A DNA stretch of 59,102 nucleotides from IMG/VR virus record IMGVR_UViG_3300032284_001102, positions 1 through 59,102 of that record; one strand, written 5' to 3'. Position 1 is the first letter of the stretch, and every line of letters begins with the position of its first letter. This DNA comes from a virus (Duplodnaviria; Caudoviricetes). The position numbers were made by a program, and so were the translations under genes. Positions 1-56,395 of this stretch are shown piece after piece. The notes beneath the pieces were generated by a model that saw only the letters and a program-made list of their open reading frames with translations, had not been told where the DNA came from and searched no databases.

Positions 1-428
1 GCTGAATCAGGATAACTATCACTTAAATGTCCTTGTACATTCCAACCCGGAAGATGGCTAACATAATTATAACTATCAAATTGAGCCCAGTCTTTATTTA
101 CATAGTTTACATAATTTTGTGGATTATCTAATGCGTCTGTGCCAGTATATGGAAATCCAATTGCATCCGATGCATCCGCCGATGCATCCGCCGATGCATC
201 TGCCGATGCATCCGAATCGTCTTCCGTCAATAATTCTTGTTCAATTTTATCAAAATATTCTTTAATAAAATTATCAAAATCAAGTTCTGTTATGTTATTT
301 AAAACCATTTCTTTAATAGATTCATCTTGTGAACCTGTTGGGGCACCATTTATATATCCTCCTGGCAAATCTAATCCAATTCCAATTCCCCCCGGAAACC
401 CATCTTCTTGTATTTTATTATCTATCAT
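1..428 (-). CDS. Hypothetical acidic protein, 5' part only (runs off the left edge); not in ORF track
   Basis: Open frame from ATG at 428: MIDNKIQEDGFPGGIGIGLDLPGGYINGAP...DSDASADASADASADASDAIGFPY... with no stop to position 1; same strand as neighbours; TATTTATA motif upstream. Confidence 0.75.
   Translation of the reverse strand, partial: MIDNKIQEDGFPGGIGIGLDLPGGYINGAPTGSQDESIKEMVLNNITELDFDNFIKEYFDKIEQELLTEDDSDASADASADASADASDAIGFPYTGTDALDNPQNYVNYVNKDWAQFDSYNYVSHLPGWNVQGHLSDSYPDS
169..215. repeat. 12-nt tandem repeat GATGCATCCGCC (about 4 copies) encoding DASA repeats
   Basis: Units at 169, 181, 193 and 205. Confidence 0.9.
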
Positions 429-453
429 TTGTAATCTTTATAAATTTAACATA

Positions 454-461
454 TATAAATA
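454..461 (-). promoter_or_regulatory. Putative late promoter TATTTATA
   Basis: Same octamer lies in intergenic DNA upstream of several structural genes. Confidence 0.55.
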
Positions 462-464
462 TCG

Positions 465-1919
465 TTAAACCAAACTCTCCGTAATTTCCAAGTTACCATC
501 TAATAAAAAATTTAAAATTTGTTTCATTTCTGTATTAAAATTTAAATTTCTCCAACTATTTTTACCGTATTGCAAAAATAAATTTTGATTATGAACACAT
601 ATATCCTTTACATTATTTAAAAATTCGTCTTTTTCTTTCTTTGTTTTGGATGCAAATTTATCAATTTCGATTTGTATCATTCTTAATCTAGCAAAGTCAT
701 CATTTTCCATATCGTAACTTTCATCAATATATGGATGAAAAGTTTTAAAACCAAATCTTTCTCTAAGATATTGTAGGGATTTTGACGGGCCTGCTAATAT
801 AAATGGTTGGCAGTGTCCTAATGGTTTAAATATTTTTTCCGATAGATATCCTGTTGCGAAATTAACATAAATATCATCTGGTCCTTTGGATTGAAAAAAT
901 ACAGATTCTGTTACTATACTTAAATATGTGTTTAAATATATATTTTTATCTTCAAATCCAAATCCTGCTATTTTAGTTAAATCTTGTATATCCAATAATG
1001 ATGATGTTTCACTAATCAATTTTGCAAATTCAGTATTATTATCATGTTTTAAAAATTCTTCTATTGGACTTGGATGATAAAATCTATTATCCCAAGAAAC
1101 TAAACTTTTATCCAATCCCAATTTATGAAGATGTGATAACAACAATAATCTATGTAATTTCCAATGTCTAGATAATAAAAGAAAATCCTTTTTGTCTTTT
1201 CCTATACTTTCTATAAATTCTTTTTGAGAAACGATTGTTGATAATCCTGATTTTATATTTCCAACTTGTGTCTCATGTGAATTTTCACCCCAATATTTAT
1301 AATCTGGGTTATCTATTACATTATTAAATTCTTGCGATTTTGCAACCATATTTAAACTATAATCTGCAACTTTATATTTTAATCCTAATTTTTCAAAATT
1401 CTTTTTTAATTTAAAATCAGCAAATAAGAAATATACTTTTTCATCATCTATTCCATTATCTCTTGTAAATTTTATTATTTTTTCAAAATTTTCTATTGTA
1501 AATCCTTCACCACCATCAACTACATAATTAAAAAATAATTTACCATTACCATTTTTAATTTCATCTATTGCAACTTTAGACATAAAATTTAATCCAAACT
1601 CATGTATTTCGTGGTTTCCAAAAAATTGATTTAAATTTGCAAATGGTTCTATCATATAAAACCATTCATAATTGATAGCATTTTTTCTATCTTCTTTAAT
1701 TTCAAATATTGATTTTTTTTGTGGAATGGTTGAATAAAAATTACTATTATAAACTGCCCAATGACAATTCCATCTTTTTGAAAAAAATTCTCCTGACATT
1801 GAGTAATCAAAATTAGATGCTGTGTATATTGTATTTAAAAATTTTGGATTTAAACAATTGGGGATTTCACCACTATATGTCATAATATCATATCCAAATA
1901 CTAATTTGTTTTTTATCAT
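465..1919 (-). CDS. Putative glycosyltransferase-like protein ('TES...EK..KP...QPF' family)
   Basis: C-terminal IVTES...SEKIFKPL...QPFIL.G...GFKTF...IDESYD block shared with 3025..4215 and 9560..10918; glycan-locus context. Confidence 0.5.
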   Translation of the reverse strand: MIKNKLVFGYDIMTYSGEIPNCLNPKFLNTIYTASNFDYSMSGEFFSKRWNCHWAVYNSNFYSTIPQKKSIFEIKEDRKNAINYEWFYMIEPFANLNQFFGNHEIHEFGLNFMSKVAIDEIKNGNGKLFFNYVVDGGEGFTIENFEKIIKFTRDNGIDDEKVYFLFADFKLKKNFEKLGLKYKVADYSLNMVAKSQEFNNVIDNPDYKYWGENSHETQVGNIKSGLSTIVSQKEFIESIGKDKKDFLLLSRHWKLHRLLLLSHLHKLGLDKSLVSWDNRFYHPSPIEEFLKHDNNTEFAKLISETSSLLDIQDLTKIAGFGFEDKNIYLNTYLSIVTESVFFQSKGPDDIYVNFATGYLSEKIFKPLGHCQPFILAGPSKSLQYLRERFGFKTFHPYIDESYDMENDDFARLRMIQIEIDKFASKTKKEKDEFLNNVKDICVHNQNLFLQYGKNSWRNLNFNTEMKQILNFLLDGNLEITESLV

Positions 1920-3040
1920 ATAATTTTTTTATGAGGTTTTCCTAAAAAATCTACCAGTACTTCTTTTACAAACTTTTTATTCATATATGGTGCGGTGTGT
2001 TGCCAGTAATTATTAGTTTTAAAATATTCCATTATATCTTCTTTTGTTCTAAATCCATTGTCCCATTTTGACCTATATTCTTGCCAAATTATATTAGGAA
2101 TGTCATCATCATCGGATATTTCATCAAAATCATAATTTTGTATAGACCACTCAACTTGTCCACCAAATTTACTAATACCATCTTTTTTATAAAACCAAAA
2201 TTTATCAAAATCAATCATATCATATAACCATTTAATATGTGGTTGATTTTCAAATTGAATTTTGTTATCAGTTTCCCAAGTATTAGGAATAAATTTATCA
2301 TAAAAAACATGCCATTCTTGTGATTTTTTACTATCAATTGGTGCAAATAATGGAAATTTATCATCTGTTCTATAATCAACTGAAAAATTGTTATGCATAT
2401 TAAAAAACATATATTCTATCCCATTTGCTTTACAAAAAGATTGAACAAGTAAAATTGATTGAAAAAATTGAATCATTCGTTCATCTGCTGAAAAAATGTG
2501 TTCTACATAATCATCAAAAAATTCTTTAGCTTTTGTTATAACGTGTTCACAATGGTATCCACCTGATAGTAGATAATATCCGTGTTCTCCTGGATATAAT
2601 TTTTCATTATCTATAAAATCATTTACATGTGCAAATGATTCGTTAATAGGATATGTATTTTTATCTCTTTCTTTTATAAATTCTTTATTCAAAAAATAAT
2701 CATTTTTATGTTGTTTATTTTTTGATATAAAAAATGAGCTTCTTGACCATCCTGACCATTGGACTATTACTTGTATATTTTTTGGATTTTTTCCTTCTTT
2801 TAATAATTTATCAATACCATATAATGTAGATTTTGCAATAACTTCATTATCATTTGTTGGACAACCATAATTTATTACTTTATATTCTGGGTATTCTTTT
2901 TGAATAAAATGTGGCCATTTCCATTGAGATATTGGGTCTGTTTGAAAATCATCCGCAGTCCCTGATATTCCAATTCGTCTATATTGGCGAGTAAACGAAC
3001 ATCCGTTTGTAATAATATATTTTGTTAAAATTTGTTCCAT
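1916..3040 (-). CDS. SGNH/GDSL-like protein (GCSFT family)
   Basis: N-terminal NGCSFT, QWSGWSR, C-terminal His (WQHT); close paralogue of 6654..7742. Confidence 0.6.
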   Translation of the reverse strand: MEQILTKYIITNGCSFTRQYRRIGISGTADDFQTDPISQWKWPHFIQKEYPEYKVINYGCPTNDNEVIAKSTLYGIDKLLKEGKNPKNIQVIVQWSGWSRSSFFISKNKQHKNDYFLNKEFIKERDKNTYPINESFAHVNDFIDNEKLYPGEHGYYLLSGGYHCEHVITKAKEFFDDYVEHIFSADERMIQFFQSILLVQSFCKANGIEYMFFNMHNNFSVDYRTDDKFPLFAPIDSKKSQEWHVFYDKFIPNTWETDNKIQFENQPHIKWLYDMIDFDKFWFYKKDGISKFGGQVEWSIQNYDFDEISDDDDIPNIIWQEYRSKWDNGFRTKEDIMEYFKTNNYWQHTAPYMNKKFVKEVLVDFLGKPHKKII

Positions 3041-4215
3041 ATGTCATTTAAAGATTTAATATATACATCGTTTAAAAGAGTACTATGATTTCTTTTAGAA
3101 AAATGAAAATAATCTCTATTAAATTCTTTTAATTCAATTTGAGACATATTCATAACATTTAATGTAAATTTTTTAATTTCATTCATTCGTTCTTCTGCAT
3201 CTTCTATTGAATCATATGAATAATTCCAAAAATCAAATCTATAATTTAATCCTTTTTCTTCTAAAAATTTTATTGTATTTGGTTTTGCAAGTAAAATAAA
3301 TGGATGAGACAACATAGTTGGTTTCATTGTTTTTTCAGAAATATTATTCCATGTTTTTTCTGTTTTTTTAGCCCCAGCTTCGCCTGCAACATCATAAAAT
3401 CTAGTTTCAGCTACAATTTCAAAACTTGTATCCAAATATGTCAATAAATTTATTTGTCCTCCACTATTTCTATAAGTTTCTTCACTAAATAAATCGAAAT
3501 CAATTCGTTTAGGTATATGTTTTAAAATTTCAAATGATTTAAATTCTGCATCGTATTCAATTGGTACAAATTCTCTAAATATTGATTTATCAAAATCAAC
3601 TCCAGTAGATGTCCATATTATATCATTTAATAAATTATTTTTATATAAAAATTCTAAAAATTTTACTTTATGAAATCTGACATGTCCAGGGTAATAAAAT
3701 GCTTTATATTTTGGCCAAAAGTTTATTTGAGAATCTTTTATCTTAATATAAGCGTCTCTATTCCTAGCAACTTCCGATTTTGGATTTATATGATGATAAA
3801 ATAAAACTTCAAAATATAAATGATTGTCTCTATTTTGTAATAAATTTTTTGAAATAAAATAACATGGTTTGTTTGTTAATTTTTCTATTTCGTCAAAATT
3901 ATATTCCGCTATTTCTTGCTCATCATATGTAGAAAAATCAAAAAATAAAGCTTTACAATTTACACTATCTATAAATAATTTTAATTTAGTTTTAAATAAT
4001 TCGGTAGTATCTGTTACATCAAATGCAATTATTAAATTTGTATTTGAATCCATATCATCAAAATTTACTAAATCTACTTTTTGATGCATATGAAATGAAC
4101 TAGGTAATTCACTATGGTCAGTTGATGGTTGTATGTTTTTTACTACAACATATTCAAATCCACCCAATAAAGTATTATTTTTTCGTAAAAACTTTACAAA
4201 GCAACATTTTTTCAT
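3025..4215 (-). CDS. Putative glycosyltransferase-like protein ('ET...EK..KP...PF' family)
   Basis: IVAET...ISEKTMKP...HPFIL...YSYD block paralogous to 465..1919. Confidence 0.5.
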   Translation of the reverse strand: MKKCCFVKFLRKNNTLLGGFEYVVVKNIQPSTDHSELPSSFHMHQKVDLVNFDDMDSNTNLIIAFDVTDTTELFKTKLKLFIDSVNCKALFFDFSTYDEQEIAEYNFDEIEKLTNKPCYFISKNLLQNRDNHLYFEVLFYHHINPKSEVARNRDAYIKIKDSQINFWPKYKAFYYPGHVRFHKVKFLEFLYKNNLLNDIIWTSTGVDFDKSIFREFVPIEYDAEFKSFEILKHIPKRIDFDLFSEETYRNSGGQINLLTYLDTSFEIVAETRFYDVAGEAGAKKTEKTWNNISEKTMKPTMLSHPFILLAKPNTIKFLEEKGLNYRFDFWNYSYDSIEDAEERMNEIKKFTLNVMNMSQIELKEFNRDYFHFSKRNHSTLLNDVYIKSLNDIWNKF

Positions 4216-4220
4216 AAAAA

Positions 4221-4352
4221 TTAAAAAGATTTATATACAAACGGGTCACGTTTTTTAAGTTCTTCTAATTTCTTTTTTAATCTTTTTTTCATTTGTCTTT
4301 GTTCATATTTTTTAACAAAGAATGAAATAATTGGCAATTCTTTAATTTTCAT
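4221..4352 (-). CDS. 43-aa basic peptide ending in PFVYKSF (DltX/SxtK-like C-terminal motif); not in ORF track
   Basis: MKIKELPIISFFVKKYEQRQMKKRLKKKLEELKKRDPFVYKSF*; fills the gap between two genes and overlaps the upstream stop. Confidence 0.8.
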   Translation of the reverse strand: MKIKELPIISFFVKKYEQRQMKKRLKKKLEELKKRDPFVYKSF

Positions 4353-5124
4353 TTTCTATTTCTTTAAGTAATTTATCAAATTTTTCTGTTCCAAATTTAT
4401 CCCAGGGTATATTAAATATAGAATATGGTTTCCAATTTACTCCTGTATTTATAAATTCAAATTCTGCAGTGCTTCTATTTTTTTTATCTATTTCTAATTC
4501 ATTTGGTTTTGTTAACAATGTTTTTGCATATTTACCACTCATCCAAAAAAAGTTACCAGCATATACTTCACAATTAAACATTGGTTCATTTAAAAATGTT
4601 CCAACTGTATTATATTCTGTTTTATTTAATATATCTATACATTCTTTATTTTTTTCTATTAAATAATATTCCATAGTTCTTTTCCAATTAATAGAATTTT
4701 TTTCATAATTTAACCTATTAATTTCGTTTCTACTTAAATTATTTGTATCAATATCTTCATATGGTGATTGATGTGAAGCTCCTTTAGTATGTATGTATAA
4801 AATACTATCATTATCTTCAAATATCTCTTTATCTTTTATTATAAGATTTAAAGTATTCCATTCTGCCGCTACATTTGTCATATCATTAAATACATAATCT
4901 CTAATTACATAATCGGGTTCATATGGTAATATTTCTTTTGATATCCATTCATATATTTTATGACTACTATCATTTTTTGATATAATATCTTGTCTGGATG
5001 GTGCTAAAATTACTATATTTACTTTTGTTTTACATTTAAAACTATTTTGAATATATAATATTTGTTCTTTTACAATATCAAAAGAATATCTGAATGCGTA
5101 TATGTGATAATATATATGAACCAT
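4342..5124 (-). CDS. Conserved viral protein, putative glycosyltransferase (YxHTKG...GNFFW family)
   Basis: Motifs LYIHTKG, W..M.Y.L, AGNFFW, R..AE; glycan-locus context. Confidence 0.45.
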   Translation of the reverse strand: MVHIYYHIYAFRYSFDIVKEQILYIQNSFKCKTKVNIVILAPSRQDIISKNDSSHKIYEWISKEILPYEPDYVIRDYVFNDMTNVAAEWNTLNLIIKDKEIFEDNDSILYIHTKGASHQSPYEDIDTNNLSRNEINRLNYEKNSINWKRTMEYYLIEKNKECIDILNKTEYNTVGTFLNEPMFNCEVYAGNFFWMSGKYAKTLLTKPNELEIDKKNRSTAEFEFINTGVNWKPYSIFNIPWDKFGTEKFDKLLKEIENEN

Positions 5125-5654
5125 TATTTATTATATAATTCTGGATATTCTGCTAATATATGAACACCACCATTTTGGATTGCATATTTGTATGATAGTT
5201 CAACATCTTGCCAAGTTTTTAAATCATGTATTTCTATATTCGGGCACATAGTTTTAAATTCATTAATATAATTTGCTTTATGTTGATGTCCTGGGTCTAA
5301 TGGTGTATCTGCACCTTTACCAACTCTAATAAGTATATTTACTTTTTTTTCCGTCATCAATTCAAATTTATCAACATGGTTTATAAGTTGATTTGCTGCA
5401 GAAATTAAAAAGTCCCAACGAGGATAAAATGAAATAACAGTTTTGCCTGTGATTGCTAAACCCAAACTCATTCCCATTTGCGTTTCTTCCATAACAGGAA
5501 CTTCAATCATTTTTTCTTTTGGTACTTCGGTTAGGGTTGTACTCATTGGATTTCCTGCGTAAATTATTTGCTGGCCAATAAAGATAGTATTGTCTAATTT
5601 AGCCAAATCCGACATTACTTTTGTAAGTGCAATTTTATATTCCGTTGGTTCCAT
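5124..5654 (-). CDS. ThDP-dependent enzyme beta subunit (transketolase/E1-beta pyrimidine-binding domain only)
   Basis: IFIGQ, EVPVMEETQMGMSLGLA, DFL...NQLIN, GHQH; lacks the C-terminal domain. Confidence 0.8.
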   Translation of the reverse strand: MEPTEYKIALTKVMSDLAKLDNTIFIGQQIIYAGNPMSTTLTEVPKEKMIEVPVMEETQMGMSLGLAITGKTVISFYPRWDFLISAANQLINHVDKFELMTEKKVNILIRVGKGADTPLDPGHQHKANYINEFKTMCPNIEIHDLKTWQDVELSYKYAIQNGGVHILAEYPELYNK

Positions 5655-6646
5655 TATGGTTTAGAATTTGGATTATATAAATGTTTATTTGCTTTATACC
5701 ACTCAATAGTCTCTTTTAAAGCTTCTTTTAGATTTCTCTTTGGTTTCCATCCTAAATCGTTAATCTTTTTTGAAGATAATAATCTAATTGGAATCATTGG
5801 TGCTTTATTATTAACATATTCAATTGGATTTGTATTGTTATCCAATTCTTTGATTGTTGCAAGTGTTTCATTTACTGTAAATCCTTCACCATAACACACA
5901 TTAAAAATATCGTATGTATCGTTATTCTCTGCTACAAAGATAAAACCATCTGCCATATCTTCAACATGTAATAAATCTCTTACTTCCGTACCATCACCCC
6001 AAACAGGGATTGGATTTAAACCATCTGCTACTTTACGGATATTTGCAGGTGTAACGTGACATTTTTCAAAATCAAATTTATCATTAGGGCCGAATGCGTT
6101 TGAAGGTCTAACAATCAAACATTGCATTGGTTCGTGAATCTGATTAGAAAAGAAATCACATAACATTTCACCATACCTCTTCATACCACCAACCGCTTTG
6201 TAAACCGGCAACATTGGAGTAGCGTGTACATTAATATCTTCGGTACAAAACTCAATTCCCATATCAGGGTAAGTTGTATTAGATGATATGAATAAAAACT
6301 TTCTAACTTTATTTTTCCAGCTTTGTTCCATTAAGTTTACATTCATCTCTACATTTGGAGTAACATGTAATAATGGGTTAAATTTAGTATCTAATGCGTT
6401 TGATGTGTTTGCTGCACAATGAAATACTACATCAACATCTTTACTAATTAATTCACAAAACTCTGCAGTTTGTAAATCTCCTTTGATGTGTTCTACTTCT
6501 GATGTTCCTTCAAAATCGTTTCTCAAATCTCTACTAAATGAGGTTGAACGGAGATTTCTATATCCTTTTTCATATAGTAATCGTAATAAATGTGAACCTA
6601 TAAATCCACTTGCTCCTGTAACTAAAACCTTGTCTGTTTTTTTCAT
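5654..6646 (-). CDS. NAD-dependent nucleotide-sugar epimerase/reductase (extended SDR, GDP-fucose-synthase-like)
   Basis: VTGASGFIG, FHCAA, RPSNAFGP, WGDG...RDLLHVED. Confidence 0.85.
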   Translation of the reverse strand: MKKTDKVLVTGASGFIGSHLLRLLYEKGYRNLRSTSFSRDLRNDFEGTSEVEHIKGDLQTAEFCELISKDVDVVFHCAANTSNALDTKFNPLLHVTPNVEMNVNLMEQSWKNKVRKFLFISSNTTYPDMGIEFCTEDINVHATPMLPVYKAVGGMKRYGEMLCDFFSNQIHEPMQCLIVRPSNAFGPNDKFDFEKCHVTPANIRKVADGLNPIPVWGDGTEVRDLLHVEDMADGFIFVAENNDTYDIFNVCYGEGFTVNETLATIKELDNNTNPIEYVNNKAPMIPIRLLSSKKINDLGWKPKRNLKEALKETIEWYKANKHLYNPNSKP

Positions 6647-6653
6647 ATATTTT

Positions 6654-7742
6654 TTATTTAAAAATGTCCCACTTTAATACTACATCATTTACAAATTTTC
6701 TTGCCAATACGGATGATGTGTGTCCATACCAACTATTATTTAAATATTTTCTTTGTTCATCTTCACTCATTCCATTCATTTCTCTCCATAATACTTTTGG
6801 TAAATCGTATTTAGAATCATCTAAGTTTTCATTAAAATTTCTAATTGACCATTCTATTATACCACCATTTTTATGTTTATTTTCTTCTTCAAAAAACCAA
6901 AAATATTTATCAAAGTTTATTCTATCAGTATACATTTTAACATATGGGTTTTCATCTGTTAGTATAGAATCTTTCCATGTATTACAAATTATTTTTTCTT
7001 TTACTATACAATCGTATGTGTCTGAATTAATTCTTTTTCTTTCTTCGTTATATGATGGTGGTGTTTTACTTTCGTCTAAATAACTTTTTGAAAAATTATT
7101 ATTCATTTGAAATGATTTTATTTTAGTAACACCTAACGATTCTAAATAAGAAAATAATCCAATCATCGAATCGAACCAATCAATATATCGTTCTTCTTTT
7201 GATAATACTTTGTTTGCATAATCCAATGCAAATTCTTGCATTCCATCTGGATTATTTGTTGGGCTATAATATCCACCTGTTAAATAAAAATACCCATGCT
7301 GATACGCATTTTCTTTTTTATCCCATTTAATAAAATCATTTGTATGTGGTGGAGAATCATTTTTTTCAATAAAATTTTTTAAACAATTATTTTTCTGGTT
7401 ATAATTTTTATTTGATATAAACCAAGATGTTCTTGTTAAAGAAGTCCATTGTGCTATAACAATAATATCTTTTGGGTCTACTTTTTGATTAAAAATTAAA
7501 TCATTTACTTTATAAAATATTGACCTACAAATTGTTTTATTATCATTTGTTATTGCTGCGTAGTTATGAAATTCTACATCGTGTTGTTTACTATAAATTT
7601 TCCAAAGCCAATGGAACCAAGTATATGTGTCCTTTTCATCATGCTTCCACCTATCCTCTGATTTATTGTATGGGTCTATGTTGGGTCTAAAATTGCTAGT
7701 AAAAGAACAACCACTTGTTACAATGTGAATTTTATTTTTCAT
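6654..7742 (-). CDS. SGNH/GDSL-like protein (GCSFT family)
   Basis: SGCSFT, QWTSLTR, C-terminal YGH; paralogue of 1916..3040. Confidence 0.6.
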   Translation of the reverse strand: MKNKIHIVTSGCSFTSNFRPNIDPYNKSEDRWKHDEKDTYTWFHWLWKIYSKQHDVEFHNYAAITNDNKTICRSIFYKVNDLIFNQKVDPKDIIVIAQWTSLTRTSWFISNKNYNQKNNCLKNFIEKNDSPPHTNDFIKWDKKENAYQHGYFYLTGGYYSPTNNPDGMQEFALDYANKVLSKEERYIDWFDSMIGLFSYLESLGVTKIKSFQMNNNFSKSYLDESKTPPSYNEERKRINSDTYDCIVKEKIICNTWKDSILTDENPYVKMYTDRINFDKYFWFFEEENKHKNGGIIEWSIRNFNENLDDSKYDLPKVLWREMNGMSEDEQRKYLNNSWYGHTSSVLARKFVNDVVLKWDIFK

Positions 7743-7748
7743 ATATTA

Positions 7749-7778
7749 AATATACTTAAAATTTTTCAAATTATCAAA
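7749..7778 (-). promoter_or_regulatory. Bacteroidota-type promoter TTTG-N19-GTATATT, 6 nt before the ATG
   Basis: Identical geometry at 34946, 56779 and 58174. Confidence 0.65.
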
Positions 7779-7813
7779 TAAATATTTTTGTTTTTTTGAT
7801 ACAACTATGTTTT

Positions 7814-8557
7814 TCATAAAAATTTATTTTCTTTTGTATAATAATTAAATTCTATAATTTTTTGATATAAATAATCTGCCCATGCTTTATGACCTTCTTT
7901 GTCAGGATGTGCATTACCGATTGTATTTGTATAAGTAGCAAATGATTCTTTTAAATATTTTTCATTTGTTAATTCATATATTAAATTTTTATCATTATAT
8001 TCTTTTTTTTTAAATTCCCAACCACGTTCAAAATCCCACCCATTAAACATTATGTATTTTACTTTTAATTTTTCTAATAAACCAAATAGTGCATATTGAA
8101 AACAAAAAAATAAATTTAATTGATATTCATGATTAAAAAAATCAATAGAATAATCTATTACTTTGTTTTGATATTTTGAAATAATTTCTTTATCTAATTC
8201 CTCTTTATTAATTTTCATCTTTGATAATGCAGGTAGTGGGTCTCCTCCATATAAAAATTCTAAGCTGCACCAATCACTAAATGGTGATGTAAATAAATAT
8301 CCTTCATTTGTTACTATTTCATCCCTCATAGGACTTGTCCATTGAACAATTAAGATGTCATCATTATTCCAATTTTTTAATAAATCAATTACTCTTCTAA
8401 AAATATATTGGTTAGAGTGGCCAGGAACACCATTATTTATTGAATTAAATTTTAATAACTTTCCCAATTCACTTGTATAGGTATTTTCTCTATCTACACC
8501 AGTACCTTCGGTAAAAGAACATCCAAACGAAACTACATTTTTTGGGTAACTATACAT
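7814..8557 (-). CDS. SGNH/GDSL-like protein
   Basis: FGCSFTEG, GVPGHSN, QWTSPMR, HPDKEGH. Confidence 0.7.
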   Translation of the reverse strand: MYSYPKNVVSFGCSFTEGTGVDRENTYTSELGKLLKFNSINNGVPGHSNQYIFRRVIDLLKNWNNDDILIVQWTSPMRDEIVTNEGYLFTSPFSDWCSLEFLYGGDPLPALSKMKINKEELDKEIISKYQNKVIDYSIDFFNHEYQLNLFFCFQYALFGLLEKLKVKYIMFNGWDFERGWEFKKKEYNDKNLIYELTNEKYLKESFATYTNTIGNAHPDKEGHKAWADYLYQKIIEFNYYTKENKFL

Positions 8558-8561
8558 GGTA

Positions 8562-9560
8562 TTAAATTCTACTTTTATATTCTAAAATAGATTTAGTCAA
8601 TCCTTCTTTTAAAGTTGTTTTTGGAAGAATACCATATTTTTTTTGTTTGTCGGCTCCTAAACATCTAATTGGGTCACCATTTGTTTTTGTAGAATCCCAT
8701 GTAATAATTTTTGTTTTGCCTGTTAATTCTTTGTAGCATTCAACAATGGTTTCAATTGTTTCTTTAATAGTTACTGCTTCTGCACAACCAAAATTAATAA
8801 TATCACTAACTTCTTTTTTAACTACATCAATTGCAGCCTGTGCTACATCGTCTCCAAATACAAAGTCTCTTTTTGAAGAACCATCGCCCCAACATACCAT
8901 TTCTTCACCTTCTACATTAAATAATTTCCAAATATTAGAACTAATAACAGTTGCATCTTGTGCAAAGTTATCATTTACGCCATAAATATTTGAAGGTCTA
9001 ATTACTGTATAATTTTTCCAACCATATTGTACTCTTAAAGAATCTAAAGTTAATTCACCCATTCTTTTTGTCCAACCTGGATGCCAATCTAAACGAGATG
9101 GTGTAGATGCCCAAGTTTCTTCTTGATTCCAAGTATCTCCCTCATTCATAATATCTGCCGGTTTATAAACACCAACCGATGAAAGATATACAAACCAATC
9201 AATTTTTGCGTCAAACGATGCTTTAATCATATTGGTATTAAACATTAACATTGGGAATAAATAATCTGCTGGCTGAGTCGATGACCTTGCTGGTGAACCT
9301 TTTACACCCGCAATGTGTAATACTATATCAATCTTTTCTCCTTTAAATAAATCTTCACAATGAGAAAGATATGTGAGGTCTGTTTTAACCAAAACCAACC
9401 ATTCTTTACCATATTGTTGTTGTAAAAACAAAATATTATCACTAAATTTTAAATCAACTGCAAATACTTTTGCACCTTCATCTAAACATTTTTTAACTGC
9501 TGGTAATCCTACCAGTCCGTTTGCTCCGGTTATAATAACCTTTTTTCCTGTAAATTCCAT
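8562..9560 (-). CDS. NAD-dependent nucleotide-sugar epimerase/reductase (extended SDR, GDP-fucose-synthase-like)
   Basis: ITGANGLVG, YLSSVGVY, RPSNIYG, WGDGSSKRDF. Confidence 0.85.
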   Translation of the reverse strand: MEFTGKKVIITGANGLVGLPAVKKCLDEGAKVFAVDLKFSDNILFLQQQYGKEWLVLVKTDLTYLSHCEDLFKGEKIDIVLHIAGVKGSPARSSTQPADYLFPMLMFNTNMIKASFDAKIDWFVYLSSVGVYKPADIMNEGDTWNQEETWASTPSRLDWHPGWTKRMGELTLDSLRVQYGWKNYTVIRPSNIYGVNDNFAQDATVISSNIWKLFNVEGEEMVCWGDGSSKRDFVFGDDVAQAAIDVVKKEVSDIINFGCAEAVTIKETIETIVECYKELTGKTKIITWDSTKTNGDPIRCLGADKQKKYGILPKTTLKEGLTKSILEYKSRI

Positions 9561-10918
9561 TATATGTGTTTTTTTAAATTTTCTATAAACATTGTTTTAT
9601 TTGCAAATTCCATTGCAAAATTTCTATTGTATTCTAATATAGGTATAATACTAATATACCAATTATGTATTTCTTCTAATGATAATTTTGATAATCTATC
9701 AATTTCATTACATAACATTTCAAATCGTTTACCACTATCATATTCATTATCGTAACTTTCATCAATAAACCCATCAAATGTTTTGAATCCCAATTCTTTT
9801 ACATATTTTAAATAACCAGGTGCACCAAATAAAATAAATGGTTGTAAAACTATTATTGGATTTATTAATTTTTCTGTTGGAAATATGTCTTTTTCAAAAT
9901 TGGTTTCTGTTATTATATGGATATATGAATCTAAATAAATTTCTTTTTTAAATGCTTTGGTTACTTCAAATGATTCTTTTTCAGATTCATTTAAATTTTC
10001 TGTGTCCATTTCTATTGGTAATTTTTCTAAAAAATTATTTGCAAATTCTTTTATTTTATTTTCAAAATCTATTGATAAATATTTTATAATTTGAATTGAT
10101 TTTGGTTTTTGTAAAAATGAACAATATATCTTTTCCCATAAATTTTTCATTTCAAAATAACAGCCTAATGAAAATCTATGAGGTTTGGTTGCATTTCTAT
10201 TTGGACAAACAAAATGTTTATTTCTTTTATTTAAAATTTGATTTGAATTAAACCATTCTGATTTATATCCTAAACCATAATATGGTTCGTTTTTTAAATC
10301 ATTAATTTTTTTACAACTTGAAATTAATAAATCATTTTCAAAATAAAAAACAAAATCTTTATTTTTAATTTCTGGGTATAAATCAAATAAATTGGAAGAA
10401 CCACCAAAAAAAATAAAATCAGATTCTTTTAAATTTAATTTTTTTATTTCTTCTGAAAATTTAAATATAAAATTTTTATCTGAAAATGGTTCATGTGATA
10501 TGTTAAATACAAATTTTAATTTATTTAATTTTGCCAATTCAATAGCTTCGTTTGAAACTAGTTTTGCAAATTTAATAGATTGTTGAATAACATCGTTTAT
10601 TTTTATAAAAGCCTCTTCAATAAAGTAATTATGATTACCAAAAATTTCTATTGGATAAAATAAAATTTCACCATTATAATTTTGATAATCCATATCTTTT
10701 AATATAACATATTTTCCACCATTTTTATCTATAACATTTCCTCTTAATTCGGAATGCCCTGATGCTAACTGAAATTTGCTTCTTAGTATATTAAAATATT
10801 CAGGGTCATTTAATGTTTCCGCATAGTTACATAATTCATCCCCCCATCCGTTTGGATATGGTGATTTCCTAATACTATCGTATCTATCGTAAGCTAATGT
10901 TATCATATTAAAATGCAA
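9560..10918 (-). CDS. Putative glycosyltransferase-like protein ('TET...TEK..NP...QPF' family)
   Basis: IITET...PTEKLINP...QPFILFG...GFKTF..FIDESYD block. Confidence 0.5.
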   Translation of the reverse strand: MHFNMITLAYDRYDSIRKSPYPNGWGDELCNYAETLNDPEYFNILRSKFQLASGHSELRGNVIDKNGGKYVILKDMDYQNYNGEILFYPIEIFGNHNYFIEEAFIKINDVIQQSIKFAKLVSNEAIELAKLNKLKFVFNISHEPFSDKNFIFKFSEEIKKLNLKESDFIFFGGSSNLFDLYPEIKNKDFVFYFENDLLISSCKKINDLKNEPYYGLGYKSEWFNSNQILNKRNKHFVCPNRNATKPHRFSLGCYFEMKNLWEKIYCSFLQKPKSIQIIKYLSIDFENKIKEFANNFLEKLPIEMDTENLNESEKESFEVTKAFKKEIYLDSYIHIITETNFEKDIFPTEKLINPIIVLQPFILFGAPGYLKYVKELGFKTFDGFIDESYDNEYDSGKRFEMLCNEIDRLSKLSLEEIHNWYISIIPILEYNRNFAMEFANKTMFIENLKKHI

Positions 10919-11537
10919 TCCACTTACCTGTTCCGTAATGTGGAAATTTTGATTTGTATGTATAATATATTACATCCGATGGTACTTCTCTTTTTGTATT
11001 CCAAGTTGCTTCCGTTGGTGTATAAGTTGATACATCGTTATCTTCTACTACAAATATAATTGGTAAGTCAAAGTTTTTTGCATACTTATGAACTTCATAA
11101 AATATACCACTTTCAAATGACATATCACCTACAAATACAAAGACTTTATTATCACCATCATTTGCCTTAATTCCCATTGCAACTCCCAATGCAATTGATA
11201 GAGTACCACCTACAATTGCCGATGAATAAAGTTTTTCATCCATATTACAAAGAGTAATTGATTTTCCTTTAAGAATTTCTTCTTCAATCCAAACAGGAGA
11301 CACATCCTTTAATAAGGCATGATAATGAGAACGCCAAGTTGAAAATACCCAATCGGATGTTTTAATTCTTTTAAATATTTCAATTAATTGTTCTTCATTT
11401 CCGTTTGATAAATGGATTGGGCCTCTGATTTTTGCATTTCCCCAATGGGTAACGATTAATTCTTCAAAATTAATTAAATCGTCTTTTGATTGTTTAATAT
11501 CTCTTACTATTGGATATTGTTTTAAATTTTTTATCAT
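10908..11537 (-). CDS. ThDP-dependent enzyme alpha subunit (E1-alpha-like, short)
   Basis: HLSNG.E, WRSHYHAL, IVGG, ThDP motif GDMS...EDN; start moved to the ATG at 11537, which overlaps the upstream TGA (ATGA). Confidence 0.85.
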   Translation of the reverse strand: MIKNLKQYPIVRDIKQSKDDLINFEELIVTHWGNAKIRGPIHLSNGNEEQLIEIFKRIKTSDWVFSTWRSHYHALLKDVSPVWIEEEILKGKSITLCNMDEKLYSSAIVGGTLSIALGVAMGIKANDGDNKVFVFVGDMSFESGIFYEVHKYAKNFDLPIIFVVEDNDVSTYTPTEATWNTKREVPSDVIYYTYKSKFPHYGTGKWIAF

Positions 11538-12079
11538 CTGTCTCTTTTTTGTAATATTGGGTTTGATGTTGGCCATTCTATTTGATATTCCGGGTCGTTC
11601 CATTTAACTACACCTTGCTCATCTGCGTCCACATAACCATCTTTATAAAATAAATTATAGTGAAACATACAATCGGTTAATGCGTAGTGGCCATTGGCAA
11701 ATCCCGGTGGAACTAATACTTGATTTCTATTTCTTTCTGATATGATAAAACTTTCCCATTCTCCTGATGTTGGTGAATTTAATCTCATATCTAAAACAAC
11801 TAAGTATATATCGCCCGCAGCTGCTTGTACCAATTTCCATGTTTTACTATCCCAATGTAATCCTCTTAACACACCTTTATATGATTTTGAAAATCTGCCA
11901 TGAATACTAATTTCACTTTTATCATAGTGTATTTGTGTCATTACTGGGTGTTCTTCCGAATGAAAGGTTGTAAATATCTCACCTCTATATTCTCTATAAA
12001 TTGATGGAGTATATGTTGGTACTTCATAACCAAATTTTTTCGATGGAGTAATTTGAAACTCATCCCATTTGTTACTCAT
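11534..12079 (-). CDS. rmlC: dTDP-4-dehydrorhamnose 3,5-epimerase family cupin
   Basis: RG.I, GVLRGLH, KLV....G.I..V..D.R, VPPGFANGH, WNDP...I.WP. Confidence 0.85.
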   Translation of the reverse strand: MSNKWDEFQITPSKKFGYEVPTYTPSIYREYRGEIFTTFHSEEHPVMTQIHYDKSEISIHGRFSKSYKGVLRGLHWDSKTWKLVQAAAGDIYLVVLDMRLNSPTSGEWESFIISERNRNQVLVPPGFANGHYALTDCMFHYNLFYKDGYVDADEQGVVKWNDPEYQIEWPTSNPILQKRDR

Positions 12080-12731
12080 TTAGTTTTAAATTTAATATAT
12101 GTTCATAAAGATTTTTAGCAATTAATTTATGGCCTATTTCACTAAAATGTCCACTATCTTTTGAACTTTGATTATTTATTCTATCGGTATTAGATGAATC
12201 ATAATAAAAATATTTTTTATATTCATCAAATGTAAAAAAATCTGGTACACTAATACGAGTTGTTTTAAAAAAAATAACTTTGATGTTGTGGCTTTTAAGC
12301 ATATGTTGAAAATTAAAATTATTTATATGAAAGTTTTCCGTTTCAAAAGAATCATTTACAAAATTTGTTTCATATGTTCTTAAAAATTCAACTTCTTCTT
12401 TAGTTTTTTGCCAAAGATAAGAATCAATTTTAAATCTAAGTACATTACCATCATCATATGAATCTTTATAATTATCATTATTTTTTGGAAATTTACTCCA
12501 AAATTCACGTCTAGTTGGTTCGGTGTATTGAATAATAACCAAATCATCTGGTGTTAAATTACCATCTATTATATGTTTCGTAATCATTCTCCAAATTCTA
12601 TAATTAGAACCACAACCGGCCGTACAATTTACTAATTCATAATTTAATAATTTAGATAATTCTTCTGGATAGCTTGTTTTAGCATTACAACGAGTAGAAA
12701 TACTACAACCTGCAGCAAATAGTTTTTTCAT
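12072..12731 (-). CDS. SGNH/GDSL-like protein
   Basis: AGCSIS, AGCGSN, QYTEPTR, GHFSEIGH. Confidence 0.6.
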   Translation of the reverse strand: MKKLFAAGCSISTRCNAKTSYPEELSKLLNYELVNCTAGCGSNYRIWRMITKHIIDGNLTPDDLVIIQYTEPTRREFWSKFPKNNDNYKDSYDDGNVLRFKIDSYLWQKTKEEVEFLRTYETNFVNDSFETENFHINNFNFQHMLKSHNIKVIFFKTTRISVPDFFTFDEYKKYFYYDSSNTDRINNQSSKDSGHFSEIGHKLIAKNLYEHILNLKLNE

Positions 12732-12732
12732 A

Positions 12733-13704
12733 TTATGTTTGATTTGCGTATCCTAAAGGAAATCCATTTCTAAATTCAAAACCCATCTTTGGTACTATCA
12801 TTTGATATGCCATTATGAGTTCTTTAATACCCCTATCTAAATCCCATACTGGGCCCCATCCTGTTGCTTCTAACTTATCATTTGATACAATATAGTTTCT
12901 CTTATCTGGGTCTTCGTAATAGTCATCATAGACCACTGCAAAGTCTTTTACATGAGATTGTATTTTTTCTAATAATTCTTGTTTTGAAAGATTTGCTTTA
13001 CTTAATCCTACATTAAAAACTTCACCTTTATATTTGTCATAATGCTGAATCATAAAACAAAAAGTAAATGCTACATCTTGAATATGGATAAAGTTTCTTT
13101 TAAATTCTTTTTCAAATACTACAATATATTTGTCCGTTATTGCTTTATAAACAAAATCATTTACCAACAAGTCCGTTCTCATTCTTGGTGAAACTCCAAA
13201 GACAGTTGCTAATCTAAATATGATTGCATTTGTTGATGTTCTTAAAAAGTTTTCAGCTTCACATTTGGTTTGTCCATAGACTGATATTGGTGTGAGTGGT
13301 GATTCTTCTGTGCATTCCATTTGACCGGTACTTAAACCATATCCACTATTTGTATTTGGATATAAAATCTTTTTACCTTTTCCGTTTGTAAATTTAACAA
13401 TATTAACTATTTGGTCAAAGTTAATTTCTCTTGCTAATTTTGGGTCTTGCGCACATGCAGGAAATCCTACAATTGCAGCTAATGGAATAATGATATCAGC
13501 TTCATTACAAAGTTTTTCTAACAATACTTCGTTACGAACATCACCATGTATAAATTTAAATTTTGATTTTGATGTATATTGTAATAGAGAAGTTTGATTG
13601 AATAATAATTTATCTAAAACAATAACCTCATAACTTTGTTCTAATAGTTTTGCAACTAATACTGAACCCAAATAACCTGCACCGCCTGTGATTAAAACTT
13701 TCAT
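12733..13704 (-). CDS. NAD-dependent nucleotide-sugar epimerase/dehydratase (extended SDR)
   Basis: ITGGAGYLG, LAAIVG, YGQTK, RLATVFGVSPRMR. Confidence 0.9.
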   Translation of the reverse strand: MKVLITGGAGYLGSVLVAKLLEQSYEVIVLDKLLFNQTSLLQYTSKSKFKFIHGDVRNEVLLEKLCNEADIIIPLAAIVGFPACAQDPKLAREINFDQIVNIVKFTNGKGKKILYPNTNSGYGLSTGQMECTEESPLTPISVYGQTKCEAENFLRTSTNAIIFRLATVFGVSPRMRTDLLVNDFVYKAITDKYIVVFEKEFKRNFIHIQDVAFTFCFMIQHYDKYKGEVFNVGLSKANLSKQELLEKIQSHVKDFAVVYDDYYEDPDKRNYIVSNDKLEATGWGPVWDLDRGIKELIMAYQMIVPKMGFEFRNGFPLGYANQT

Positions 13705-14468
13705 TAAAAGTAAATATTTTTTTCTATATAAAATTGAGGATAGTTTCCACTAAAACTTATATCCCATACTTTGTATCTATTGTAATGGTTAAAATCACAA
13801 AAGAATGCAAAATATTTTCTTAATGGAAAATCATAATTTAATTTTCTTAAATTATTAAAAACTATATGACTATATTTTTCTTCATAATTATCAACTATAT
13901 CGTATACTTCTTCTATTTTTATATTTTTATTTAAAATAAAACACATATTATATTCAAATTCACCAATTGCTCTATGTTCTTCAGGCCCAATCATACTACC
14001 ACACCCAAACCAAAAAAATGCATCTTTATATGACATTTTTTCATAATTATCAAATTTAATAGTACCAACTAATTTTTTATTGACATAGCAATCAATTTTT
14101 CTATCTTCAAAATTTTCACAAATCATGGTAAAGTCATTAAATTCATTTACTTCTTTATTTGTTAATTGATAATATATTTGTTTTGGATATTTTTCAAATG
14201 TGCCATCTTCATTTGTTTTAATAACCCAATAAGTAAAAACAATATTTGCGTTTTCATATTTATCAATAAATGCACTAATACCAGAATGCATACCATTTCT
14301 AGCCATTAAAAATTGTTCGATTTCTTTTGGCATTAATTCTGGAAATATTTTTGCTGATAAAAATAATGTAAAGTCTTTGTCCATATGTTTGTCTATTCTT
14401 TCAGAAACGGAATATCTACTTTCAGGCAATATAAAAAATATATTATCTTTATTTACTCTTAAACTCAT
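13704..14468 (-). CDS. Stand-alone LamG/concanavalin-like domain protein
   Basis: FTL, G..SG, YVN, FG.G and D(F) pattern resembling the inserts in the adjacent GT7 proteins. Confidence 0.4.
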   Translation of the reverse strand: MSLRVNKDNIFFILPESRYSVSERIDKHMDKDFTLFLSAKIFPELMPKEIEQFLMARNGMHSGISAFIDKYENANIVFTYWVIKTNEDGTFEKYPKQIYYQLTNKEVNEFNDFTMICENFEDRKIDCYVNKKLVGTIKFDNYEKMSYKDAFFWFGCGSMIGPEEHRAIGEFEYNMCFILNKNIKIEEVYDIVDNYEEKYSHIVFNNLRKLNYDFPLRKYFAFFCDFNHYNRYKVWDISFSGNYPQFYIEKNIYF

Positions 14469-14471
14469 AAT

Positions 14472-15887
14472 TTAAACTTTAATTGTTTTACAAAAATGAT
14501 AAAATTCTTCTAATTCTGGAAAAGTTTTGCAAAAATCGGTTCCCCTTCTTAAATCGTGATTAGAAAAATATTGATAAAAACTATATCTATTTTTCATTTG
14601 TTGTGTAGAATCTTGTGGTGCTAACATCCAATCATAAATTCTTTTTACCTTTTGTACTTCAACATCACTATATCCAATATGTTCGGGACTAAATGATGGT
14701 GCTGCATAATAAGTGACTAATTTTGCTTGGTCTAAAATATATTTAGAATAATCAAATGGTAATACCTGTACAGTTTGATGTAATGGATATCTTAAATATG
14801 ATGAATCTAAAAATACTGCCGAACTCCAATATCTATCATTACTTGCATATGTATCTTTTAATGTATAAATGTTGTGTATTAGGTTTTCGTAATTAAACAC
14901 ACTTAATGCGTTATAAGTTGACATAAATGTAATAATAACTTTTGGACACGCAGTAAGAATCATATTTACATGGTCCCAGAATTTATTAAATTCTAATCCC
15001 GTTCTGATGTACTCTGCTTGCTCACCCCAAGTATCTACCGATGTAAAGATTACAATTTCTTTTACTCTGTTTTCGTCTTCAATTTTTTTAATTTTTTGAA
15101 TTAATTTTTCTACCAATGCAGTTGGAACTCCTAAATTAGAATTGATTGCCAATTTTAATTCTCTATTTGGATTGTCCTGTGCTAAAATAAAATCTAATAC
15201 ACCCCATGTATCTTTTGATAATAATGGTTCACCTCCAGTAATTCTAAATGTATGCAAATCTCTATATAAATCTGGCCACCATTTCCAAAATGCTTCTACA
15301 TACGGGTTATGGTCTTTATGTGGGATTGGCATTTTATCCTCTCTAACTAACCATTCAGGTGAGTTAAATCCATCTAATGTTGGATAACCACCATATTGTT
15401 CAACTTCTTCTACCCATGTTGAACTAAATGCAGGGCCGCAATATGAACATTTAAAGTTACAAGCGTTTGAAAATGCAACTTCCACATATTTTGGATTGTA
15501 ATCGTCTCTCCAATCTAGGTTTTTAATTTCTTCCATAAAAGGATAAGACCAACTTTCTCCAGATTTAAATATTCTATCACTAAATCTATCAGAGTTATCC
15601 TCTACACCCCAACAATAATCACATTCTTCAGGTCTTGCACCTTGTAACATTTCTTTTCTACGAAGTTTTTTGTACCTTGTATTATGAAGTGCTGAGGGGT
15701 TTCTAGTTATTTCTTGTTCTGAAATTTTGTGTGTACGAGGGTGGTGACATGAGTGATTGTGGCCACTTTGTAATTGTAAAGTTACTTGTGTCCATTTAGC
15801 TAAACACATTCCAGGACCTACTGCGTCTAATTCTTCTTTAGCTCTTAGGTATATCGGATTTTCCGAGTATGATTTTTCGTCTGCCAT
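14472..15887 (-). CDS. Radical SAM protein with N-terminal Twitch/SPASM-like Cys domain
   Basis: CNFKCSYC, TGGEPL; N-terminal CLAKW...SCHHP...CDYCW. Confidence 0.9.
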   Translation of the reverse strand: MADEKSYSENPIYLRAKEELDAVGPGMCLAKWTQVTLQLQSGHNHSCHHPRTHKISEQEITRNPSALHNTRYKKLRRKEMLQGARPEECDYCWGVEDNSDRFSDRIFKSGESWSYPFMEEIKNLDWRDDYNPKYVEVAFSNACNFKCSYCGPAFSSTWVEEVEQYGGYPTLDGFNSPEWLVREDKMPIPHKDHNPYVEAFWKWWPDLYRDLHTFRITGGEPLLSKDTWGVLDFILAQDNPNRELKLAINSNLGVPTALVEKLIQKIKKIEDENRVKEIVIFTSVDTWGEQAEYIRTGLEFNKFWDHVNMILTACPKVIITFMSTYNALSVFNYENLIHNIYTLKDTYASNDRYWSSAVFLDSSYLRYPLHQTVQVLPFDYSKYILDQAKLVTYYAAPSFSPEHIGYSDVEVQKVKRIYDWMLAPQDSTQQMKNRYSFYQYFSNHDLRRGTDFCKTFPELEEFYHFCKTIKV

Positions 15888-15891
15888 AATT

Positions 15892-18785: not shown

Positions 18786-18795
18786 TTAATTTATA

Positions 18796-19125
18796 TTAAA
18801 CTGTTTCTATATCTTTTTTTGGTCTTGGTTTTCTAACCGGTAATTCTGCAGCATCTGCATCAACTACCGATGTTGGTACTTTTGGTTGTTCTGGATTTAC
18901 ATTAGAAGTTCCACCTTTTGCCATATTATAATGTTCATATAAATAAAATGCAATTCTTTCACCCCATTCTTTTTTAGGTATTTCTTCAAACCAAATGGTC
19001 AATGCATCTAATGAATTTGCTATCTTTTCTAAGGCTTTTATTTTTCTAGTTTCTAATACAAGACTTTCAACATTTTGTTGTTCGGATGTCTCTGTTTCCG
19101 TTGTTTGTAACTTTGATTTTGCCAT
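18796..19125 (-). CDS. Hypothetical protein
   Basis: 109-aa ORF with operon-like spacing. Confidence 0.7.
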   Translation of the reverse strand: MAKSKLQTTETETSEQQNVESLVLETRKIKALEKIANSLDALTIWFEEIPKKEWGERIAFYLYEHYNMAKGGTSNVNPEQPKVPTSVVDADAAELPVRKPRPKKDIETV

Positions 19126-19127
19126 AA

Positions 19128-20582: not shown

Positions 20583-20597
20583 TTAGTAACTTATTGT

Positions 20598-21446: not shown

Positions 21447-21453
21447 TCTTTTT

Positions 21454-23171: not shown

Positions 23172-23216
23172 ATAAATAATTATTATTTTTATTCAAAAAT
23201 AGCAGAAGCACATCCT

Positions 23217-56185: not shown

Positions 56186-56395
56186 TTATTTTTTTAATCC
56201 GTATTTAATCCATTTATACCAAACTCTTTCGTGAATATAATATTGAATGGGTTTGTAAATCAATTCTGCTACTCCAAATGCTGCTCCAATTTTAATTGAA
56301 CCACTTATCAACCACATTAATAAAAAACCAACTAAGGTACTTATAATACGATATGATATGGTTTTTGCAATATGTCTCTTTCTTTCTACTAACAT
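56186..56395 (-). CDS. DUF2061-like small membrane protein
   Basis: R..AKTISYR...K...YYIHERVW. Confidence 0.8.
   Translation of the reverse strand: MLVERKRHIAKTISYRIISTLVGFLLMWLISGSIKIGAAFGVAELIYKPIQYYIHERVWYKWIKYGLKK

Follow-up and report, generated by a model that had tools for sequence, protein, structure and literature searches.

HypF joins YrdC-like and Kae1-like domains and makes carbamoyl-AMP. The C-terminal Cys of the PRIC motif of HypE bears a carbamoyl-derived group (PMC12130793), and in the account given of DltX and PatA the Tyr of an FXYXXF motif acts as an acyl shuttle that passes its group to the Ser of an SGNH enzyme (PMC12148441). Here we compare with these systems a 43-residue peptide encoded on the minus strand at positions 4221..4352 of a 59,102-nucleotide stretch of viral DNA (Duplodnaviria; Caudoviricetes; positions 1 to 59,102 of IMG/VR record IMGVR_UViG_3300032284_001102), which we refer to as the window. 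Relatives of this peptide share a nearly invariant C-terminal tail with a Tyr close to its end, and they travel with genes for NodU/CmcH-type carbamoyltransferases (CTs). By analogy with the systems above, we propose that the peptide probably receives or carries a carbamoyl group.

Two further systems bear on this proposal. The sxt cluster contains sxtK, a 165-bp gene whose function is given as not known and which is tabled after sxtI and sxtJ and before sxtL, a gene assigned to decarbamoylation (PMC2679770). The crocagin precursor is described as a peptide of 21 residues with a Lys/Arg-rich leader of 18 residues and a C-terminal core of 3, and its pathway includes the dioxygenase CgnC, the esterase-type hydrolase CgnD, which removes the leader, and the carbamoyltransferase CgnI (PMC10070186). 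In a separate report a NodU-like CT carbamoylates a Lys of a peptide, acting on a precursor of the class of peptides that are made by the ribosome and modified after translation (RiPPs) (PMC13174530).

A conserved phage peptide with an invariant Tyr

The open reading frame (ORF) reads MKIKELPIISFFVKKYEQRQMKKRLKKKLEELKKRDPFVYKSF followed by a stop codon, giving the C-terminus PFVYKSF. At its ATG it shares 11 nt with the 3' end of the gene upstream (4342..5124), 5 nt separate its stop from the start of the downstream gene (3025..4215), and it occupies the sole gap of at least 60 nt (126 nt) in its operon stretch. A first-pass annotation of the window, made from the sequence alone, had pointed to this hidden ORF with its PFVYKSF-stop ending and had described the product as basic and without a long transmembrane (TM) helix. 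Both descriptions hold: the peptide has a pI of 10.25, with 15 Lys and Arg versus 5 Asp and Glu, and lacks a TM-like stretch, its best 19-residue hydropathy being -0.26 (2.6 in a bacterial DUF5989 protein, a family discussed below).

A search of 5.8 billion proteins returned 129 clusters of relatives of 37-66 aa at E <=1. Across 43 relatives K27, K28, E31, L32, K34, R35, D36, P37, F38 and Y40 are unchanged, and in a wider set of 44 diverse sequences E31, L32, K34, D36, P37, F38 and Y40 are all invariant, so that Tyr40, whose conservation the first-pass annotation had put up for checking, is constant in both. On DNA the core was found 99 times in 70 distinct 30-nt versions, which use 6 Arg, 6 Leu and 4 Pro codons; the search pattern itself fixed which residues could be found, and the informative part of this result is the codon spread alone. 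Because this spread is synonymous, it is the protein that is constrained, rather than some element in the RNA or DNA. The closest viral contigs retain the peptide at 95% and 86% identity versus 89% and 67% for the neighbouring 260-aa protein, the second pair of values (peptide 86%, neighbour 67%) coming from survey loci L002 and L003. Together these comparisons show that 4221..4352 is a real gene under selection at the amino-acid level.

The alternative, that the ORF is open merely by chance in an AT-rich gap between genes, draws on the frequency of the ending: FxYxxF closes 1 of 1425 stop-to-stop frames of at least 20 aa, and composition alone leads one to expect about 0.6 per window. The motif by itself is therefore not significant. 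A frame that is conserved more strongly than its neighbours, and with synonymous variation, is not what chance would leave, and we consider this reading refuted by the conservation data and its remaining probability negligible.

The same protein is present in public collections as a 'hypothetical protein'. HMMER searches of 1.84 billion representatives returned 10 proteins at E <=0.001, none in a named family, and matches in the ESM Atlas were solely to unnamed small clusters. A tblastn search with the peptide as query found no match in 50,697 phage records, probably an effect of the low-complexity filter given how large the family is elsewhere, and megablast of window positions 1..12000 likewise gave none. 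Many apparently longer relatives of the peptide were set aside as read-through or upstream-extension artefacts of gene calling; the fusions to a GatZ/KbaZ-like enzyme described below were kept, having been confirmed on DNA.

The first-pass annotation had seen the functional unit in a DltX-type FxYxxF hexapeptide, and this part of its proposal finds no support. The C-terminus F38-V-Y40-K-S-F43 does meet the pattern, but endings of the form PF[VI]YK[SN][FY], with F or Y in the last place, are restricted to the window's own subfamily. Most relatives end within one residue past the Tyr: 27 of 41 viral relatives terminate in PFIYK, YR, YD or YKH, and the enzyme-borne tails discussed below (all 58 listed and 6 further ones) stop at most one residue past it. 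The conserved unit is ELKKRDPF[IV]Y, with the Tyr penultimate in most relatives, rather than the hexapeptide.

Carbamoyltransferase genes accompany the peptide

The first-pass annotation had named a NodU/CmcH carbamoyltransferase at 52893..54590, an assignment confirmed by Pfam (Table 1). To see how widely peptide and CT occur together, we fetched 41 viral loci with the family alignment, clustered the neighbouring genes and named the clusters by Pfam. In 26 of the 41 the peptide has a CT-like gene no more than 8 kb away: in all 21 T4-like loci, in 5 of 7 others, where it is adjacent, and in none of 13 window-type loci. The T4-like loci share the order primase, peptide, often an 81-aa DUF2061 membrane protein, CT-like gene and DnaB helicase (uncultured T4-like phages, L059-L089; the CT-like gene is exemplified by L063:8324-9328). 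Among the others, a full-length CT directly precedes the peptide in L067, L068 and L085. The DUF2061 relative is present between peptide and CT-like gene in 12 of the 21 T4-like marine phage loci, and the DUF2061 protein of the window (56186..56395) may likewise be a member of the module, perhaps a counterpart of SxtJ. Look-ups of this T4-like context among cultured phages returned only Ralstonia phage RsoM2USA, together with one marine single-cell virus.

In the window's own clade of ~245-kb phages each genome has one peptide gene and one CT gene, about 50 kb apart. Of 5 contigs that bear the peptide, 4 have the CT as well, and of 3 that bear the CT, 2 have the peptide; the two exceptions are fragments, of 24% and 32% completeness. 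The expectation that the peptide's distribution would track carbamoyltransferase genes is thus borne out, since it follows NodU/CmcH genes in several unrelated gene orders. Complex prediction of the window CT with the peptide gave an ipSAE of 0.00 in both runs, which we count as evidence neither way.

An enzyme that bears the same tail

The tail also occurs outside free peptides. A phage enzyme of 325 aa, which resembles GatZ/KbaZ and class II aldolases by weak matches, bears ..RLEELRKRDPFIYR as its own C-terminus. Among 74 loci of this GatZ/KbaZ-like enzyme examined on DNA (L254-L327, for example L254:6001-7068), the tail is fused in 42 and forms a separate ORF directly after the enzyme in 22. 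A CT of ~470 aa stands beside the enzyme, starting about 10 nt past the tail in most loci and lying within 6 kb in 63 of the 74. That the tail is fused in some loci and separate in others, with the CT next to it, makes it a portable module and the CT its constant neighbour. No GatZ/KbaZ-like gene was found in the window. In four of these loci (L301-L303 and L321) the enzyme ends in QYRFGYN instead, possibly another Tyr tail.

The fusions invite a reading in which peptide and tail act non-covalently, as a subunit or docking tag whose helix and DPF[IV]Y end bind the Kae1-like groove of the CT and activate, inhibit or recruit it, the fused form tethering a neighbouring enzyme for channelling. A row of ten invariant residues is more in keeping with a binding interface than with one acceptor residue; the variety of enzymes beside the CT to which the tail is fused fits a tether, and the Kae1-like domain is the constant partner even where the YrdC-like domain is missing. 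A free 43-aa tag that tethers nothing would require some further function, though, and in the window clade the gene sits 50 kb from the CT, among glycan enzymes. We hold this reading to be distinctly unlikely.

The closeness of the next gene to the tail raises yet another possibility, namely that the conserved end acts in cis while still nascent, holding the ribosome at the stop codon or close to it and so controlling translation of the following gene, usually the CT. Conservation is limited to the final 10-17 residues beside the stop, the next gene usually starts within ~0-30 nt (~10 nt in the GatZ-type loci), and a feature of this kind would work equally well at the end of a long ORF. What follows the tail varies by lineage, though (GT-B-like gene, giant protein, DUF2061, CT or radical SAM gene); the gap reaches 229-506 nt in L062, L072, L086 and L087, and in L067, L068 and L085 the peptide follows the CT rather than preceding it. 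To our knowledge no known arrest motif resembles the peptide end, and we regard control by stalling as very improbable.

Bacterial carbamoyltransferase loci and DUF5989

The first-pass annotation had stated that SxtK-like peptides with a PFIYxLF end accompany carbamoyltransferases, and a survey of 80 bacterial and archaeal CT loci agrees with it, uncovering DUF5989 frames that end in APFIYxxF, with APFIYTLF as the ending of DUF5989/SxtK. A frame ending in PFxYxxF is present in 58 of the 80, free-standing in 42 and part of a longer frame in 16. Four of the longer frames (661-751 aa) begin at or before the CT match and extend past its end: in L093, L101, L111 and L136 (Phenylobacterium, Polyangiaceae and a deltaproteobacterial metagenome-assembled genome (MAG)) the CT frame continues into a DUF5989-like TM segment ending in APFIYAIF, which is a natural CT-SxtK fusion. 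Those PFxYxxF peptides that were tested proved to be DUF5989 (3 of 3 free-standing ones, E <=6.7e-22, and one fused tail), and SxtJ stands beside the bacterial DUF5989 peptides in 3 of 3 tested.

The phage peptide resembles DUF5989/SxtK (PF19451) in several respects: both have about 50 aa, are basic near the start, conserve a Pro and keep PF[IV]Y unchanged towards the C-terminus. DUF5989 is encoded next to the CT or fused to it; the phage family too has a CT-like gene nearby in most loci, but in the window the two are 48.5 kb apart. In bacteria SxtJ (PF19588) accompanies DUF5989, and GDSL genes recur nearby. They differ in that DUF5989 has a TM helix (hydropathy 2.6) and a constant xxF end, whereas the phage protein has a charged helix instead. 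An hmmscan to PF19451 at E <=10 gave no match for the window peptide or 7 other phage forms, and in hhalign comparisons of the phage family with DUF5989 only DPFVYK/APFIYT (probability 5.5%) or DPFIY/APFIY (28%) align, over 5-6 columns. SxtJ had no match among the window ORFs scanned, 52 in all, searched against Pfam at E <=0.01; a DUF2061 gene (56186..56395) is present instead.

SGNH-fold proteins and the comparison with crocagin

The first-pass annotation had further noted an SGNH-like gene coupled to the CT, four more SGNH-like genes around the peptide and the lack of any MBOAT protein, and each of these observations stands. The coupled gene, 52132..52893, overlaps the CT by 1 nt, the four others are listed in Table 1, and no MBOAT or AT3 family was matched among the scanned ORFs. 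In alignment 52132..52893 and its relatives retain the Ser of a GDS/GCS block, an Asn, and the His of an HPNxxGH block. An AlphaFold2 (AF2) model of the protein (pLDDT 91.5) has GDSL/TesA proteins as its top Foldseek matches throughout (E 3e-5), and structural comparison with VIA aligned it to TesA over 162 residues (Z 13.8, rmsd 2.7); on this modelling the SGNH fold of the CT-coupled protein is confirmed. Among the matches listed, all of 253-269 aa, none of 120 relatives of 52132..52893 ends in a Tyr tail. Between two of the SGNH-like genes lies a 23-aa Lys-rich micro-ORF ending in FKYI (7746..7817, minus strand), which is absent from the closest relative of the region, L001, and is probably no gene.

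In the same comparison the model matched CgnD (8a2n_A) at rank 30 (Z 12.2, rmsd 4.9, 189 residues aligned), a near tie with TesA. This match, together with the combination of a basic leader, a C-terminal core, the CgnD hydrolase and the CgnI CT in the crocagin pathway as described (PMC10070186), suggests that the phage peptide could be a precursor or scaffold of RiPP type. Its basic helix would be the leader and its C-terminal F-[IV]-Y would be tailored (hydroxylated, carbamoylated) and cut by an SGNH hydrolase as in crocagin, to yield a small-molecule product acting on the host. The likeness extends to a small Lys-rich peptide with a Tyr-containing C-terminal aromatic triplet, where the resemblance is one of form only, and to a NodU-type CT and an SGNH-fold hydrolase. 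Genes for 2-oxoglutarate (2OG)-Fe(II) oxygenases lie after the helicase in the T4-like loci, a few genes from the peptide, and the second NodU-like CT mentioned above acts on a RiPP precursor (PMC13174530). Against a precursor, the supposed core is invariant and the residues after the Tyr are variable or missing, the opposite of most RiPP families; the fusion of the tail to the 325-aa enzyme in 42 of 74 loci, and of a similar bacterial tail to the CT, would be odd for a precursor; and the gene is present in a single copy per genome. Neither a 2OG oxygenase nor a family of the RiPP recognition element (RRE) type was matched among the scanned window ORFs, relatives of CgnC and of CgnB/CgnE were not seen in the window (CgnB and CgnE were not searched by sequence), and TesA-type esterases outscore CgnD. 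We consider a RiPP-type precursor unlikely, if less so than a docking tag, and the chief rival to a carbamoyl carrier.

Genes of the window

The window covers part of the genome of a large tailed phage. All of its 50-odd genes are on the minus strand, with a G+C content of 24-36%, and they include a baseplate gp25, phage endonuclease I, a primase, an SbcCD-like nuclease and a tail fibre with an S74 chaperone domain; contigs related to the window reach 245 kb and have terminal repeats. The peptide gene lies in a sugar-modification island (~465..25006) that also encodes short-chain dehydrogenase/reductase (SDR) epimerases, RmlC, split thiamine pyrophosphate (TPP) enzymes, a radical SAM protein, a GT2 glycosyltransferase and three GT7-laminin G proteins.

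Table 1. Peptide gene, carbamoyltransferase and associated genes of the window
Feature	Position	Strand	Remarks
Longer SGNH-like paralogue, 374 aa, NGCSFT block	1916..3040	-	weak DUF6071 match, E 0.0062
Gene 3' of peptide, possibly GT-B glycosyltransferase	3025..4215	-	AF2 pLDDT 69; weak TarM, glycogen synthase and T4 BGT matches, E >=3e-3
Peptide gene	4221..4352	-	hydrophobic start LPIISFFV, Lys/Arg-rich helix-like middle, invariant tail ELKKRDPFVY, then KSF
Gene 5' of peptide, 260 aa, family unnamed	4342..5124	-	end overlaps peptide start; no Pfam match
Longer SGNH-like paralogue, 362 aa, SGCSFT block	6654..7742	-	E 1e-48 to 1916..3040; weak links to shorter paralogues
SGNH-like paralogue	7814..8557	-	block I GCSFTEG, C-terminal HPDKEGH; BLASTP E 3e-11 to 52132..52893
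SGNH-like paralogue	12072..12731	-	DUF6071 PF19547 E 1.8e-7, 31.5 bits, above Pfam cut-off
SGNH/GDSL-fold protein, weak DUF6071 match	52132..52893	-	start overlaps CT stop by 1 nt
NodU/CmcH-type CT, Kae1-like N-terminal and YrdC-like C-terminal domain	52893..54590	-	Carbam_trans_N 7e-59, Carbam_trans_C 5.6e-64; proposed partner, 48.5 kb from peptide
DUF2061 small membrane protein, 69 aa	56186..56395	-	PF09834 E 7.7e-17; 1.6 kb upstream of CT

Relatives of 4342..5124 at 33-39% identity have the peptide gene within 4 kb in none of 47 viral loci. A gene of the 3025..4215 type follows the peptide in the window and in L001, L002, L052, L057, L058, L060 and L071, and members of its family stand beside the peptide in gene orders of several kinds (the window type, that of L067/L068 and that of L091); it is one of three paralogues of an unnamed family of 396-484 aa on the minus strand of the window, with 465..1919 and 9560..10918. 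At the edge of the window a partial ORF (3..428, minus strand) carries a run of DASA repeats and belongs to a family of 750-1933-aa proteins that follow the island in related phages. The three GT7 genes are tandem paralogues (15892..20582, minus strand) in which a beta-1,4-galactosyltransferase-like domain is coupled with one of the laminin G/concanavalin type; a glycosyltransferase family of animal type is thus encoded by a phage. Near the CT, on the minus strand, are a peptide deformylase and an Hsp20-type small heat-shock protein (55535..56182 and 58195..58581). The contig of L001 carries the IMG/VR label of a giant-virus MAG contig (GVMAG) yet has the gene content of a tailed phage, and the label is probably one of binning.

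Discussion

That the peptide travels with enzymes that add carbamoyl groups is our reason for regarding it as their probable receiver or carrier. We envision a scenario in which the soluble, basic microprotein is a dedicated protein partner of the phage NodU/CmcH CT, its flexible tail entering the Kae1-like transfer site of that enzyme, where the hydroxyl of Tyr40 would be carbamoylated from carbamoyl-AMP. The resulting aryl carbamate could then be a mobile donor for the module's other enzymes. Serine hydrolases are carbamoylated by aryl carbamates, and in the glycan island the most plausible taker would be the SGNH-fold proteins with their catalytic Ser, from which the group would be passed to a sugar. 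The peptide would thus be a free 'swinging arm', cytoplasmic and independent of any MBOAT protein, with a role like that of the HypE Cys tail or the DltX/PatA tyrosine. We favor this scenario because it accounts together for a selected Tyr tail, one copy per genome with one CT, adjacency to the CT and the fusions to enzymes; by analogy, promiscuous fusion of this kind is what carrier arms show. In its specific form, with the CT loading Tyr40 and the peptide delivering the group to further enzymes, among which the island's SGNH proteins are the most plausible, we hold it tentatively, as a proposal that may well prove wrong and that we nonetheless think likelier than any of the alternatives taken singly.

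The scenario borrows from two known systems and departs from both. As in HypF and HypE, a YrdC/Kae1-like enzyme would carbamoylate a partner protein at its flexible C-terminal tail, and the group would then be handed on. The acceptor there is the terminal Cys (PRIC) of HypE, a 35-kDa PurM-like ATPase, whereas here it would be a Tyr, borne either by a free peptide of 5 kDa or by an aldolase-like enzyme; the peptide contains no Cys and has no sequence similarity to HypE, and the likeness is mechanistic only. With DltX-DltB-DltD and PatA-PatB, in the account available for them (PMC12148441), the phage system shares a conserved Tyr near the C-terminus, an SGNH-fold partner and the occurrence of free and fused versions of the tail. 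It differs in having no MBOAT, no membrane and no donor in the form of acyl-CoA or a carrier protein; the group would be carbamoyl; and the phage relatives mostly lack the terminal xxF, their conserved block being longer and charged.

Several observations weigh against the carrier proposal or parts of it. Conservation of the Tyr could reflect binding only, and in a peptide so rich in Lys the acceptor need not be the Tyr and could be a Lys. The window itself separates peptide and CT by 48.5 kb, and the peptide lies within 5 kb of the CT in none of 80 close CT loci. The CT-like gene of the T4-like loci is short (316-339 aa), with a partial match to Carbam_trans_N (Kae1-like) and without the YrdC-like domain. 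Fusion of the tail to an aldolase-like enzyme was not predicted by the idea of a relay. Homology of the phage peptide to DUF5989 or DltX is not demonstrable by sequence comparison. The co-occurrence with SGNH genes, which the first-pass annotation had put up for checking, holds in part: such genes are present in the window, in 19 of the 80 bacterial CT loci, where GDSL relatives lie within 3 kb (18 of them in two Pfam-named families), and in the order sxtI-J-K-L. A minority of the GatZ-type loci have an SGNH relative within 6 kb, but none of the 21 T4-like loci has one within 8 kb of the peptide. The SGNH enzymes thus often belong to the module, and their absence near the peptide in all 21 T4-like loci shows that they are no obligatory neighbours.

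In its broadest form the idea would be that phages, and bacteria by way of DUF5989/SxtK, use a ribosomally made 'carbamoyl carrier peptide' whose tail Tyr is loaded by NodU/CmcH enzymes, with SGNH transferases or the tail-bearing aldolase-like enzyme as receivers, and that a jumbo-phage glycan is in this way carbamoylated in the host cytoplasm. So wide a generalization strikes us as doubtful, clearly more so than the loading of Tyr40 and the delivery of its group taken by themselves.

Our literature search found no paper on this peptide family or on DUF5989, none linking a carbamoyltransferase with a microprotein and nothing relevant for the terms carbamoyl, tyrosine, NodU and phage; for SxtJ and SxtK it returned descriptions of gene clusters only. 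These small CT companions, and DUF5989 with them, have been without a function since the sxt cluster was described, and a soluble, easily synthesised 43-mer makes the question testable in vitro. Should the peptide prove to be a precursor, it would be a sign that viruses encode chemistry of the RiPP kind. If it is a carbamoyl carrier, it would be a third protein-borne group shuttle beside the acyl-Tyr of DltX/PatA and the carbamoyl-Cys of HypE, and would give SxtJ and SxtK their long-missing function. If Tyr40 is indeed loaded, protein-borne tyrosine shuttles would extend from acylation at the membrane to carbamoylation in the cytoplasm, and the peptide would help to account for the products of the large glycan islands that aquatic jumbo phages carry.

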